From NCBI GenBank assembly GCA_046351535.1, contig JAXLYG010000005.1, positions 165,334 through 229,333 of the forward strand: 64,000 bases of DNA, in the 5' to 3' direction. A program made the position numbers and the translations under genes. A model generated the notes under the pieces. It searched no databases. It had not been told where the DNA came from and worked only from the letters and a program-made list of their open reading frames with translations. Each line of letters starts with the position of its first letter. Within the stretch, counting starts at the first letter, position 1. This stretch comes from Polyangiales bacterium. Lineage in GTDB: Bacteria; Myxococcota_A; Polyangia; Polyangiales; Ga0077539. Below are positions 55,351 through 57,014 of this stretch, one piece after another.

Positions 55351-55423
55351 CGGACGTAGTGTTCAACAGCAGCACCTCACGGTGCCATCGTGAGAGATCG
55401 GGTGCAAATCCCGACGCCCGCAC
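55351..55423 (+). tRNA. tRNA-Gly(GCC)-like with noncanonical T-loop TGCAAAT (G55) and D-loop lacking GG
   Basis: Acceptor GCGGACG/CGCCCGC (one mismatch), anticodon arm TCACG-GTGCCAT-CGTGA, T-arm TCGGG-TGCAAAT-CCCGA. Confidence 0.4.
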
Positions 55424-55441
55424 CGCTTCTGTGCCTCTCTG

Positions 55442-55514
55442 GTCCCGTCGTTCAGTGGTCTAGGACGGCCGATTGTCGATCGGTCAACGCGGGTTCGATT
55501 CCCGTCGGGACCGC
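55442..55514 (+). tRNA. tRNA-Asp(GTC)
   Basis: Acceptor GGTCCCG/CGGGACC, D-loop AGTGGTCTA, anticodon arm GCCGA-TTGTCGA-TCGGT, T-loop TTCGATT. Confidence 0.7.
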
Positions 55515-55533
55515 CTTGTGCCTCGCCTCCTTC

Positions 55534-55605
55534 GTGGTCCGATCAGCATCGAGCCCTGTCTTACAAACAAGGCGAACCGGGGGCGGCACCCGGGGCCACG
55601 ACCAT
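55534..55605 (+). tRNA. Minimal tRNA-like (Val TAC anticodon loop CTTACAA), 69 nt + encoded CCA, mini D-arm, T-loop GGCGGCA
   Basis: Acceptor CGTGGTC(C)/GGCCACG, 7-bp anticodon stem GCCCTGT/ACAAGGC, T-like arm CCGGG-GGCGGCA-CCCGG. Confidence 0.3.
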
Positions 55606-55606
55606 C

Positions 55607-55679
55607 AGCGTGTAGCTCAGTCAGAAGAGCGCCTGCTTCGGGAGCAGGAGGCCGCGGGGGCAGGTCCCGCCTCGCTGAC
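55607..55679 (+). tRNA. tRNA-Pro(CGG)-like with T-loop GGCAGGT and D-loop lacking GG
   Basis: Acceptor CAGCGTG/CTCGCTG (one mismatch), D-arm GCTC-AGTCAGAA-GAGC, anticodon arm CCTGC-TTCGGGA-GCAGG. Confidence 0.4.
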
Positions 55680-55710
55680 CGCGTCGCAAGACGCTTCGCC
55701 TCGCATCACG

Positions 55711-55783
55711 GCCCTGTCGTCTAGAGGTTCAAGATCGCTGGCCCTCAACCAGCAGAGGCGGGTTCGAGTCCCGTCAGGGTCGC
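55711..55783 (+). tRNA. tRNA-Glu(CTC) (anticodon loop CCCTCAA, C33)
   Basis: Acceptor GGCCCTG/CAGGGTC, D-arm GTCT-AGAGGTTCA-AGAT, T-arm GCGGG-TTCGAGT-CCCGT. Confidence 0.5.
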
Positions 55784-55796
55784 CGTTTCAGCATCG

Positions 55797-55869
55797 CGGA
55801 CGTAGTGTTCAACAGCAGCACATCGCGGCCCCATCGCGAGAGCTCGGGTGCAAATCCCGACGTCCGCAC
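55797..55869 (+). tRNA. tRNA-Gly(CCC)-like, T-loop TGCAAAT, D-loop lacking GG
   Basis: Acceptor GCGGACG/CGTCCGC perfect; anticodon arm TCGCG-GCCCCAT-CGCGA. Confidence 0.4.
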
Positions 55870-55913
55870 CGAGCGCGCACGCGGCGCCGTCTGAGCGTTG
55901 CGCATTCCATCAG

Positions 55914-55985
55914 GTCCCGTCGTTCAACGGATAGGACAGCCGATTGTCGATCGGCCAACGCGGGTTCGATTCCCGTCGGGACCGC
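55914..55985 (+). tRNA. tRNA-Asp(GTC), second copy
   Basis: Acceptor GGTCCCG/CGGGACC, D-loop AACGGATA, anticodon arm GCCGA-TTGTCGA-TCGGC. Confidence 0.7.
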
Positions 55986-56001
55986 CTTCTGTCTCGCTCT
56001 G

Positions 56002-56074
56002 CCCATCGAGGCTGTCGGAAGAAACCATCGGGTGGCGAACCCGAAATGCGTGGTTCAACTCCACGGATGGGCGC
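56002..56074 (+). tRNA. tRNA-Arg-like (anticodon loop TGGCGAA, GCG with G33), duplicate of 55171 unit
   Basis: Same acceptor and T-arm as 55171-55243; anticodon arm TCGGG-TGGCGAA-CCCGA. Confidence 0.35.
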
Positions 56075-56092
56075 TCTCTGCCTCTCGCCTCG

Positions 56093-56165
56093 ACCCTGTC
56101 ATCTAACGGCTCAGGATGCCTGGTTCTCAGCCAGTTCATACGGGTTCGAATCCCGTCAGGGTCGC
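56093..56165 (+). tRNA. tRNA-Glu(CTC)-like, duplicate of 55262 unit
   Basis: Near-identical to 55262-55334 (2 substitutions). Confidence 0.35.
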
Positions 56166-56181
56166 CGCCTCATCGCCTCCG

Positions 56182-56254
56182 CGGACGTAGTGTTCAACAG
56201 CAGCACCTCACAGTGCCATCGTGAGAGATCGGGTGCAAATCCCGACGCCCGCAC
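56182..56254 (+). tRNA. tRNA-Gly(GCC)-like, duplicate of 55351 unit (anticodon stem weakened by G to A)
   Basis: Near-identical to 55351-55423; T-loop TGCAAAT. Confidence 0.35.
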
Positions 56255-56272
56255 CGCTTCTGCGTCTCTCTG

Positions 56273-56577
56273 GTCCCGTCGTTCAGTGGTCTAGCTCTAC
56301 TGTCCCGATGGAGCCTGGGCCTTCACGCCGCGTGTTGAAACACGCGGCAGGGAAGGCACACGGTGAGCATCCTGCGAAAAGTCCCGCTTCGCAGGACTCC
56401 CAATCGGAGCCTCGTGCGCGAGTCCCGCGGAGCGGGACTTCGTTCAGATCGATCTCGAACTGCCTTCCCTGCCGCGTGTTTCAACACGGCGTGGGGGCGC
56501 AGCGCTCGTCCGGGACAGTAGAGCTAGGACGGCCGATTGTCGATCGGTCAACGCGGGTTCGATTCCCGTCGGGACCG
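56273..56577 (+). pseudogene. tRNA-Asp(GTC) third copy, disrupted in the D-loop by a 229-bp MITE
   Basis: 5' part GGTCCCGTCGTTCAGTGGTCTAG and 3' part GACGGCCGATTGTCGATCGGTCAACGCGGGTTCGATTCCCGTCGGGACC match intact copy 55442-55514 exactly, separated by insertion 56296-56524 flanked by CTAG duplication. Confidence 0.65.
56296..56524. mobile_element. Non-autonomous MITE (229 bp): 13-bp perfect terminal inverted repeats CTCTACTGTCCCG / CGGGACAGTAGAG, 4-bp CTAG target-site duplication, long internal inverted repeats
   Basis: Comparison of interrupted versus intact tRNA-Asp copies defines exact insertion boundaries; internal IR 56329-56360 vs 56462-56491; no ORF. Confidence 0.7.
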
Positions 56578-56597
56578 CCTTGTGCCTCGCCTCCTTC

Positions 56598-56669
56598 GTG
56601 GTCCGATCAGCATCGAGCCCTGTCTTACAAACAAGGCGAACCGGGGGCGGCACCCGGGGCCACGACCAT
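56598..56669 (+). tRNA. Minimal tRNA-like (Val TAC loop), duplicate of 55534 unit, encoded CCA
   Basis: Identical to 55534-55605. Confidence 0.3.
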
Positions 56670-56670
56670 C

Positions 56671-56746
56671 AGTGTGTAGCTCAGCGAGCAGAGCGCCGGT
56701 TCGGGGGACCGGAGGCCGCGGGGGCGGAACCCGCCACACTGACCAT
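56671..56746 (+). tRNA. tRNA-Pro(GGG)-like, T-loop GGCGGAA, encoded CCA
   Basis: Acceptor CAGTGTG/CACACTG perfect, D-arm GCTC-AGCGAGCA-GAGC, anticodon arm CCGGT-TCGGGGG-ACCGG. Confidence 0.4.
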
Positions 56747-56756
56747 TCTCCTCATG

Positions 56757-56827
56757 GGGCGGTAGTTCAACGGTAGAACGCCTGACTGTGGCCCAGGCAA
56801 TATGGGTTCGATTCCCGTCCGTCCCTC
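56757..56827 (+). tRNA. tRNA-His(GTG)
   Basis: Acceptor GGGGCGG/CCGTCCC, D-arm GTTC-AACGGTA-GAAC, anticodon loop CTGTGGC, T-arm ATGGG-TTCGATT-CCCGT. Confidence 0.6.
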
Positions 56828-56857
56828 TGTTTTCAAGGCGCTTCACAGCCTCTCATG

Positions 56858-56930
56858 GCCCTGTCGTCTAATGGTAGAAGATCGCGGATTTTCACCCCGC
56901 GGACACGGGTTCGATTCCCGTCAGGGCTGC
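56858..56930 (+). tRNA. tRNA-Glu(TTC)
   Basis: Acceptor GGCCCTG/CAGGGCT, D-arm GTCT-AATGGTAGA-AGAT, anticodon loop TTTTCAC, T-arm ACGGG-TTCGATT-CCCGT. Confidence 0.65.
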
Positions 56931-56943
56931 CATGATTCTCGTG

Positions 56944-57014
56944 CGGGTATGGTGTAGCAGCAGCACCGGTGGCCTCCGCCCACCATGCGCGGGTGCGAAT
57001 CCCGCTGCCCGCTC
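56944..57014 (+). tRNA. tRNA-Gly(TCC)-like, T-loop TGCGAAT (G55), D-loop AGCAGCA lacking GG
   Basis: Acceptor GCGGGTA/TGCCCGC, anticodon arm GGTGG-CCTCCGC-CCACC. Confidence 0.4.

Follow-up and report, generated by a model that had tools for sequence, protein, structure and literature searches.

A long tRNA array in a Polyangiales chromosome includes tRNAs with a putatively alternative elbow based on A18 and G55

Clusters of at least 20 tRNA genes on the same strand, at a density of at least two genes per kb, have been defined as tRNA array units (Tran et al., PMC4758250). Translational stress induces 23 of the 26 tRNAs in the long array (L-array) of Anabaena; these are aminoacylated and occur in polysomes (PMC8421152). 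The L-array papers that we compared do not mention peculiarities of the D-loops or T-loops. Here, we analyse a stretch of 64,000 nucleotides (the window) of a Polyangiales chromosome (GenBank assembly GCA_046351535.1, contig JAXLYG010000005.1, positions 165,334 to 229,333). It encodes 24 co-oriented tRNA units packed in 2,462 bp of the + strand (positions 54655-57116 of the window), and thus includes a tRNA array unit, an array of a known type. Nine of the units share an exchange of two nucleotides of the tRNA elbow, A18 for G18 and G55 for U55. We found no description of a natural A18/G55 tRNA, of U55G, or of an elbow variant in an L-array in the literature searched, the coverage of which was incomplete; an earlier description is possible and, on this absence of evidence, the class is apparently undescribed. 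We propose that the region is a horizontally spread array of candidate extra tRNAs, probably charged and used by the ribosome, part of which would have an alternative but intact elbow.

Few features of tRNA vary as little as the contacts between G18 and pseudouridine-55 and between T54 and A58, on which gene finders and many enzymes rely as anchors. In the canonical tRNA, G18 is stacked between R57 and A58 and bonded to pseudouridine-55, and G19 pairs with C56. The corresponding hallmark (G18-G19 with U54-U55-C56) is present in 15 units of the array and absent in the other nine (four Gly, two Pro, two Val-like, and one Thr), which have A18-G19 with U/G54-G55-C56, i.e., AG for GG in the D-loop and N-G-C for T-T-C in the T-loop. 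The D-loops TCAACAGCA/AGCAGCA of the Gly units are combined with the T-loops TGCAAAT/TGCGAAT, the D-loops AGTCAGAA/AGCGAGCA of the Pro units with GGCAGGT/GGCGGAA, and the Val-like units have the T-loop GGCGGCA. In the Pro and Val-like units the pair 54:58 is G:G in place of U:A. C56 is present in 9/9 alternative units, and every one of their D-loops has a G directly after the A.

Eight of these units had been singled out in an original prediction made from the letters of the window, and their positions were correct within 1 nt (Gly-like 55350, 55796, 56181, and 56943; Pro-like 55606 and 56670; Val-like 55533 and 56597). The ninth, Thr(CGU) at 57044-57116, is of the same class and lies beyond the range then considered. 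The loops quoted at the time for the Gly and Pro units and the Val-like T-loop were also right; the Val-like D-arm is not AGTCAGAA-like, but has a 4-bp stem and the 4-nt loop CAGC. The 8-9 linker is missing in the Val-like units and their anticodon stem has a C-A mismatch; both copies may be impaired. The G18-U55 and G19-C56 contacts were thought to be lost together, whereas we found that only positions 18 and 55 are swapped (G18 to A, U55 to G) and that G19 and C56 are kept. The joint occurrence of D-loop and T-loop changes does go far beyond chance: among 104 units parsed by ARAGORN in the window and in orthologous arrays, 72 were GG with TTC, 32 were AG with NGC, and none was mixed.

Many of these tRNAs are poorly detected by standard tools. 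ARAGORN found 16 tRNA genes on the + strand of the array, and Rfam at gathering score found 13; we arrived at 24 units by relaxing the settings of ARAGORN, searching locally with Rfam, and parsing manually. Default ARAGORN missed six of the nine alternative units and Rfam missed four. With the model RF00005 (gathering threshold of 29 bits), the units at 55606, 56943, 56670, 55796, and 56181 scored respectively 51.2, 48.1, 43.9, 40.1, and 29.9 bits, and Gly 55350, Thr 57044, and both Val-like units fell below the threshold. Cloverleaves were obtained for all alternative units with relaxed-threshold ARAGORN or minimum free energy folding. The array has a lower G+C content than the window (64% vs 72%) and serves 12 amino acids (Gly, Pro, Lys, Glu, Asp, Gln, Ala, Arg, Thr, Val, His, and Asn). 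The block 55170-55680 resembles 56001-56745, which reveals an internal duplication. Some of the copies in the window are thus recent duplicates rather than independent events, and independent evidence has to come from other genomes.

The association of A18 with G55 may make structural sense. T-loops of the FMN and cobalamin riboswitches have the consensus UGNRA (88.7%) or YGNRA, their intercalator between positions 4 and 5 is almost always an adenosine, and it contacts the sugar edge of the position-2 G through two hydrogen bonds; in the same study tRNA is a deviant class with U at position 2, treated as uniform, and GGAAG is a T-loop of rRNA (bioRxiv 10.1101/2022.12.26.521914). When T-loop position 2 is mapped on nucleotide 55 and the intercalator on nucleotide 18, the Gly and Thr T-loops fit U/Y-G-N-R-A followed by two extra bases (UGCAA-AU, UGCGA-AU, UGCAA-GU), and those of the Pro and Val-like units (GGCRG) lie outside the UGNRA consensus. 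We propose that the tRNA flavour of the motif (UUCRA with G18) would have been exchanged for the general flavour (UGCRA with an intercalating A18), with retention of the outer G19-C56 pair. The Pro and Val-like units would additionally have gone from U:A to G:G at 54:58. A UGNRA flavour would explain why the changes at 18 and 55 come together. The elbow of the nine units would then be alternative but intact, and equivalent in three dimensions to the UGNRA T-loops.

The array has orthologues in other genomes. It is flanked by a gene encoding an aminotransferase, also present on the activated-sludge contig L001 (98.8% identical to the window), whose homologues are labelled Polyangiales, Polyangium, or Minicystis. 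Arrays with a similar Lys-to-Thr order adjoin the orthologues of this gene with 85-87% identity (L035, L036, L039, L040/L041, and, partially, L042/L043), and no array was found at that site beside homologues with 79% (L037/L038) and 83% (L044) identity. Hence, the array is conserved within a sub-clade and patchy beyond it; such patchiness is shared with the L-arrays and suggests a horizontal gain. In three pairs of species the units were 96.2%, 91.6%, and 91.1% identical, as against 81.0%, 71.9%, and 72.3% for the indel-rich spacers. Alternative units were as conserved as canonical ones (91.7% vs 91.6%). Their stems show compensatory changes, e.g., the Gly acceptor stem changed from GCGGACG/CGUCCGC to GCGAAUG/CAUUCGC while the D- and T-loops were retained. 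In the eight sequences of the Pro family 99.4% of the cells were paired, six pairs had changed on both sides, none of 500 shuffles reached the observed covariation score, and A18, G19, G54, G55, C56, and G58 were invariant. The Val-like family is also conserved, and sister species have the anticodon CAC and a different, fully paired acceptor stem.

These comparisons indicate that the alternative units are kept by purifying selection. The original prediction had argued for selection rather than decay, and the comparison with other arrays bears it out: units of the orthologous arrays are constrained much more than the spacers, and positions 18 and 55 covary, as do 54 and 58. The array is still in flux, with an insertion-split tRNA-Asp, mismatched duplicates of Gly units, and one Glu-CUC unit missing in L039. 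One could then regard the units as decaying pseudogenes of a once-mobile array that are now functionless, given the mismatches in several window copies, the recent duplicates, the tRNA-Asp broken in this strain, the many units with low scores or missed by Rfam, and the fact that three of the 26 genes of the Anabaena array are pseudogenes. We regard this as most improbable, and it is contradicted for the family as a whole by the much higher conservation of units than of spacers, the equal conservation of both classes, the compensatory changes in all variable stems, and the covariation of the loop partners.

The same design is found in metagenomic arrays. A scan of metagenomes with the Gly D-arm TRGTGTTCAACAGCAGCAC as bait returned 96 stretches, of which 80 were examined; about half were coincidences within coding sequences. 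Requiring at least five relaxed-threshold ARAGORN units per locus, we retained 28 unrelated arrays with 436 units, with up to 30 units per contig and a G+C content between 0.48 and 0.69. The bait D-arm was seen in tRNAs for Gly, Pro, Trp, Lys, and Thr, always with the T-loop U54-G55-C56-N-A58. In 29 tRNAs with the common D-arm GUGUUCAACAGCAGCAC, 97.9% of the cells were paired and all 17 variable pairs had changed on both sides; the covariation score of their acceptor, anticodon, and T stems was 0.826, against 0.173 when shuffled (0/500 shuffles as high).

Loop partners were strongly associated in these arrays. There were 230 GG/U55, 171 AG/G55, 26 GG/G55, and 3 AG/U55 units (Fisher p = 1e-86, and 4.6e-70 on unique sequences, values that overstate the number of events since related sequences are not independent), and many of the mixed units have ..AGGA D-loops, which are actually A18-G19-G20. 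C56 was retained in 189 of 199 G55 units. In units without C56 the base following R18 was complementary to position 56 in nine out of ten cases (background of 44%, p = 0.007), e.g., AU with A56, AC with G56, and GA with U56. The pair 54:58 was U:A in 387 units, G:G in 10, A:U in 19, and C:A in 11. Alternative units were found for all 20 amino-acid identities, with stems paired as well as the canonical ones, and some arrays are mostly alternative (L049, 23/30; L057, 17/20). The T-loop also varies in other ways. Arrays such as L045, L051, L057, L069, L112, and L114 include A54-G55-C56-R57-U58 (AGCGUUA, AGCAUUA), C54..A58 (CUCGA..), and A54-U55-C56-G57-U58. Given such variants, position 54 of the array tRNAs often cannot become T54.

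Outside arrays, we found stand-alone tRNAs with the D-loop AGCAGCA and the T-loop UGCRAAU in DPANN archaea and in bacteria of the candidate phyla radiation (CPR), next to canonical tRNAs (L010-L034; e.g., L010 6889-6959, L023 189-262, and L030 6169-6242). In Nanoarchaeota and Parvarchaeota the carriers are Gly(CCC), Thr(UGU), and Val(CAC); in Saccharibacteria and Wildermuthbacteria, Gly(UCC). Of the nine metagenome-assembled genomes with the archaeal Gly-CCC gene, eight have identical copies, and the copy of L013 differs only by an additional C at the 3' end. The window Gly(UCC) at 56943 has the same D-loop and T-loop as these tRNAs, and shares with the CPR tRNA-Gly the acceptor start GCGGGUA and U73. 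Unlike in the window, they are encoded singly rather than in arrays, and in small genomes, where they presumably serve as working decoders; this suggests that the design is compatible with decoding.

The anticodons of the array match the needs of the host. According to the codon usage of 23 long reading frames with high G+C at third codon positions, the preferred codons read by the array include AAG (98%), CAG (93%), AAC (97%), GAG (88%, three CUC genes), GAC (90%, three genes), and GGC (63%, two genes), together with GGG, CCC and CCG, ACG, CAC, CGC, and GUG. Metagenomic arrays with flanks of higher G+C content have C or G more often at the wobble position (rho 0.71, p = 6e-4, n = 19). The discriminator base fits the identity given by the anticodon in 67% of the alternative and 70% of the canonical units of these arrays. 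Their alternative units carry many of the identity elements read by aminoacyl-tRNA synthetases: U73 in Gly (25/31) and Cys (10/10), G73 in Trp (10/10), A73 with C1-G72 in Pro (9/10), and G3-U70 in Ala (6/8). The units of the window largely conform (G3-U70 in Ala; G73 in Asp and Glu; C1-G72 and A73 in Pro; A73 in Lys; U73 in Gly-UCC). Purifying selection, fitting identity elements, and the match with the most-used codons of the host together point to tRNAs that are most likely charged and translation-competent. The array would then supply extra tRNAs, of which about 40% would have the alternative elbow.

The function first proposed for the altered units was a non-ribosomal one, as aminoacyl donors or regulatory RNAs whose elbow avoids EF-Tu and the ribosome. 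The model for this is the non-proteinogenic tRNA-Gly used in Fem-dependent bridge synthesis by staphylococci (PMC4574755, PMC7826273). As in the window, these tRNAs lack G18G19, have a non-canonical T-loop, and are encoded by duplicated genes. They also lack the conserved U55 and C56 (PMC4574755). The Anabaena study allows for non-canonical roles, and Gly is the most duplicated alternative unit of the window. Yet, the analogy breaks down at the elbow: staphylococcal tRNA-Gly have U18U19 or C18U19, so that G18 and G19 are replaced by pyrimidines and both contacts are gone, for Gly only, whereas window units have A18G19 with G55C56, in several identities. The pairing of 19 with 56 is maintained, each of the four Gly units has G-C at the T-stem pairs 51-63 to 53-61, and the anticodons follow the codon usage of the host. 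The alternative design occurs in all 20 identities, beyond those of Fem, cyclodipeptide-synthase (CDPS), or LanB-type enzymes. We also searched for the transferases that such a role calls for. No Fem, CDPS, L/F-transferase, LanB, or MprF domain was found among the 31 large open reading frames (ORFs) of the window or among the called genes flanking the orthologous arrays. A non-ribosomal role is therefore very unlikely for an elbow that appears rebuilt rather than lost, and translation-competent extra tRNAs remain our preferred explanation.

Why the alternative design was favoured is a separate question, for which escape from nucleases or enzymes that read the elbow, independence from modification, or the neutrality of two isosteric solutions are candidates. 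A G at position 55 precludes pseudouridine, as one at position 54 precludes m5U. An escape variant would hide the tRNAs, by their elbow and their C33/G33 loops, from tRNA-cleaving toxins, immune nucleases, or modification enzymes such as TruB, TrmA, and TrmH, making the array a damage-proof reserve. It competes only as a selective reason and is compatible with ribosomal use. Arrays with alternative elbows do lie on phage-like or mobile contigs (L051, L099, L069, L124), C33 is frequent among array units (15-19%), and phage tRNAs have been reported to evade defences that target tRNAs (PMC10264068, PMC11555353, PMC11464382). Like those phage tRNAs, the array tRNAs are variant, clustered, found on mobile contigs, and altered at conserved positions (C33 here). 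The reported evasions, however, involve the anticodon arm and have not been linked to a redesigned elbow, and the window array is chromosomal with no nuclease or toxin gene linked to it. Some phage arrays are wholly canonical (phiCbK), and the design also occurs in the stand-alone tRNAs of DPANN and CPR genomes. Hence, we consider escape unlikely as the selective reason.

The genomic context of the metagenomic arrays fits mobile elements in several cases. The phage-like contig L051 (Ga0315286_10004218) encodes an ATP-dependent DNA ligase, the RNA ligase RtcB, a T4-type RNase H, and ClpP. Its array (134-2909), which includes alternative units, lies approximately 3 kb from the RtcB gene (5781-6821, oriented coordinates); the rtcB of Anabaena is reported as co-regulated with the tRNA array. 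An NAD-dependent ligase is encoded on L069 and L124 along with large proteins that look structural; L095 has a gene for a GIY-YIG endonuclease and L099 one for a resolvase. The window array has no such neighbours and looks domesticated. We rejected its interpretation as part of a prophage or an integrative and conjugative element (ICE), as there are no integrase, phage, or conjugation genes within 10 kb. When the complete array was compared with collections of phages and plasmids by BLAST, nothing beyond generic similarity to tRNA-Pro emerged, and the matching phiCbK array is entirely canonical. Pattern scans of viral contigs returned nothing related except one suppressor-like tRNA with the same loops, and one alternative tRNA-Gly, searched against phages, matched a relative of the canonical type in the Vibrio phage Phriendly (D-arm GUGUUCAACGGUAGCAU).

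Several points weigh against the reading of the array as a set of working extra tRNAs. The metagenomic sample was baited with one alternative D-arm and parsed by ARAGORN at relaxed thresholds, which adds to the non-independence of its sequences mentioned above. Several copies in the window look impaired, with an A-C mismatch in Gly 55350 and 56181, no 8-9 linker in the Val-like units, and one tRNA-Asp split by an insertion. Five units have C or G in place of U33, and A73 is found in Gly 55350, 55796, and 56181 instead of the U73 of their orthologues and of bacterial tRNA-Gly. Finally, coverage of 12 amino acids is odd for a general back-up set.

A broader picture may be drawn, which we hold as possible rather than probable: a widely spread mobile lineage of tRNAs of all 20 identities, with the elbow rebuilt as UGNRA plus adenosine, which would be independent of the enzymes making pseudouridine-55, T54, and Gm18, and possibly invisible to factors that read the T-loop. 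Chromosomal arrays would then be domesticated shadow sets that stand in for attacked or undermodified tRNAs. If so, the abundance of shadow tRNAs is underestimated, because standard finders miss many of them. More generally, if a natural and selected double swap (A18:G55, combined with G:G or A:U at 54:58) has recurred in hundreds of tRNAs, there would be a second way to build the elbow, tied to T-loops at large. Such tRNAs are predicted to be devoid of pseudouridine-55 and m5U54 by design, and would offer ready scaffolds for the engineering of orthogonal tRNAs. The tRNA complements of mobile elements and of some genomes would be under-annotated, and the unexplained biology of long arrays would become more accessible.

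The features of the locus and of its surroundings are listed in Table 1.

Table 1. Features of the window, in window coordinates, with the elbow class of each tRNA unit.
Feature	Position	Strand	Remarks
tRNA-like RNA	2469..2601	+	canonical acceptor, D, and T arms; 74-nt insert replaces anticodon arm
Related repeat	~2620..2650		CAGTGAG..CGACGGTTACTTC
TROVE-domain (Ro60/Rsr-like) gene	2738..4444	+	~140 nt downstream of tRNA-like RNA
Vault-like protein, 913 aa	30630..33371	+	major-vault-protein shoulder and vault repeat domains
Sigma-70-like promoter (TTGACA-18-TAGAGT)	53851..53880	+	leader start; TTGACA block conserved upstream of orthologous arrays
Small ORF, 62 aa	54067..54255	+	60-64 aa in L035, L036, L039, L040; motifs DRRPEGxGN, RVAGQKPR; indels multiples of three
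Terminator-like hairpin and T-run	54310..54337	+	after small ORF; equivalent GC hairpin in orthologues
AT-rich block, candidate array promoter	54530..54654	+	5' of first tRNA; CTGAAACAAA and GACGTTCAAAC-GATAGA conserved in five arrays
tRNA-Lys(CUU)	54655..54731	+	canonical; CCA encoded; opens every orthologous array
tRNA-Gln(CUG)	54787..54859	+	canonical
Gln-Asn spacer, 139 nt	54860..54998	+	long terminal stem GGCGGAGGG/CCCTCCGCC
tRNA-Asn(GUU)	54999..55074	+	canonical
tRNA-Ala(GGC)	55083..55155	+	canonical; G3-U70
tRNA-Arg(ACG)	55170..55243	+	canonical; D-stem weak
tRNA-Glu(CUC)	55261..55335	+	canonical
tRNA-Gly(GCC)	55350..55424	+	alternative; D-loop UCAACAGCA, T-loop UGCAAAU; A5-C68 mismatch; A73
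tRNA-Asp(GUC)	55441..55515	+	canonical
Val-like tRNA (UAC)	55533..55604	+	alternative; D-loop CAGC, T-loop GGCGGCA; ACCA end; missed by ARAGORN and Rfam
tRNA-Pro(CGG)	55606..55680	+	alternative; D-loop AGUCAGAA, T-loop GGCAGGU (G54, G55, C56, G58)
tRNA-Glu(CUC)	55710..55784	+	canonical; C33, anticodon loop CCCUCAA
tRNA-Gly(CCC)	55796..55870	+	alternative; C33
tRNA-Asp(GUC)	55913..55986	+	canonical
tRNA-Arg(GCG)	56001..56074	+	canonical; G33
tRNA-Glu(CUC)	56092..56166	+	canonical; duplicate of 55261
tRNA-Gly(GCC)	56181..56255	+	alternative; duplicate of 55350 with extra anticodon-stem mismatch
tRNA-Asp(GUC)	56272..56579	+	D-loop split by 229-bp insertion
Insertion, 229 bp	56295..56523		13-bp inverted ends CTCTACTGTCCCG/CGGGACAGTAGAG; CTAG duplicated
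Val-like tRNA (UAC)	56597..56668	+	alternative; second copy, identical to 55533 unit
tRNA-Pro(GGG)	56670..56745	+	alternative; D-loop AGCGAGCA, T-loop GGCGGAA; C33
tRNA-His(GUG)	56756..56827	+	canonical
tRNA-Glu(UUC)	56857..56932	+	canonical
tRNA-Gly(UCC)	56943..57015	+	alternative; D-loop AGCAGCA, T-loop UGCGAAU; C33; U73
tRNA-Thr(CGU)	57044..57116	+	alternative; D-loop AGAGAGCG, T-loop UGCAAGU; closes array
Aminotransferase gene	57129..58277	-	flanks array
Lysyl-oxidase-domain gene	58192..59676	+	first of tandem pair
Lysyl-oxidase-domain gene	~59864..61336	+	second of tandem pair

The promoter-like site, small ORF, hairpin, and AT-rich block upstream of the array may form a regulatory leader, which is a guess, and the ORF is possibly regulatory. 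Residues of the leader ORF correspond to amino acids served by the array in 85-91% of cases, against approximately 73% in the proteins of the window, a weak difference noted post hoc. This composition is suggestive of an attenuation-type control, again post hoc. By analogy with the Anabaena array, induced under translational stress, expression of the window array would be conditional, from the conserved leader. We discarded a control by sigma-54 because the GG/GC spacing is not conserved in the conserved upstream block.

Some features of the units are shared by both elbow classes or concern the array as a whole. The near-universal U33 is replaced by C33 in four units and by G33 in one (Table 1). 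The Glu anticodon loop CCCUCAA is kept in all orthologous arrays, and C33 is found in both classes of the metagenomic arrays. A full CCA is encoded only in the Lys, Asn, Val-like, Pro-GGG, and Glu-UUC units; most others end with the discriminator and CC without A (e.g., ACCG, GCCG, GCCT), and in the metagenomic arrays CCA is encoded in 204 of the 436 units. The Gln-Asn spacer has no recognisable tRNA, and its motif TCTCTGACAA..GGTGATG recurs in the equivalent spacers of L035 and L036 and is missing in L039 and L040. The insertion in tRNA-Asp is missing in the 98.8%-identical strain L001, and so looks like a recent transposition of an element resembling a miniature inverted-repeat transposable element. 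We found no second copy of it within the window.

The two tandem lysyl-oxidase-domain genes and a metallophosphatase accompany the aminotransferase and the array at every orthologous locus. The amino acids served by the array resemble the composition of collagen-like proteins, which we note as a coincidence. Elsewhere in the window, the tRNA-like RNA (Rfam tRNA, 43.4 bits), followed by a related repeat, and the TROVE-domain gene fit a YrlA-type bacterial Y RNA with its Ro protein; the Rfam YrlA model did not match this RNA. The same window encodes a vault-like bacterial protein, followed by a VWA-domain protein.

How does the locus compare with the systems already described? With the trn operon of PCC 7120 (plasmid delta), the arrays on ICEs of Acidithiobacillus, and those of Mycobacterium it shares at least 20 co-oriented genes at approximately 10 genes per kb (PMC8421152, PMC4758250, PMC5966550), as well as a patchy distribution among relatives, redundancy of isodecoders, and some degenerate members. 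It differs from them in that it serves 12 amino acids only, is chromosomal with no integrase nearby, and has a conserved leader with a small ORF. The T-loops of its Gly and Thr units are like those of the UGNRA riboswitches in having U-G-N-R-A with two bulged bases and an adenosine in the partner loop when position 2 is G, and the GGCRG of the Pro and Val-like units resembles the GGAAG T-loop of rRNA. Unlike in the riboswitches, the motif is here in the T-arm of a tRNA, where position 3 keeps a Watson-Crick pair with position 19 of the D-loop; the equivalence is drawn from sequence and covariation. The Anabaena array itself has one member with the alternative elbow, Glu(CUC), with the D-loop AAAUAAGAUAA and the T-loop UGCAACU; PMC8421152 is silent on whether it is among the 23 expressed tRNAs. 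The share of A18/G55 units thus ranges from 1/24 in Anabaena to 9/24 in the window and approximately 80% in some metagenomic arrays.

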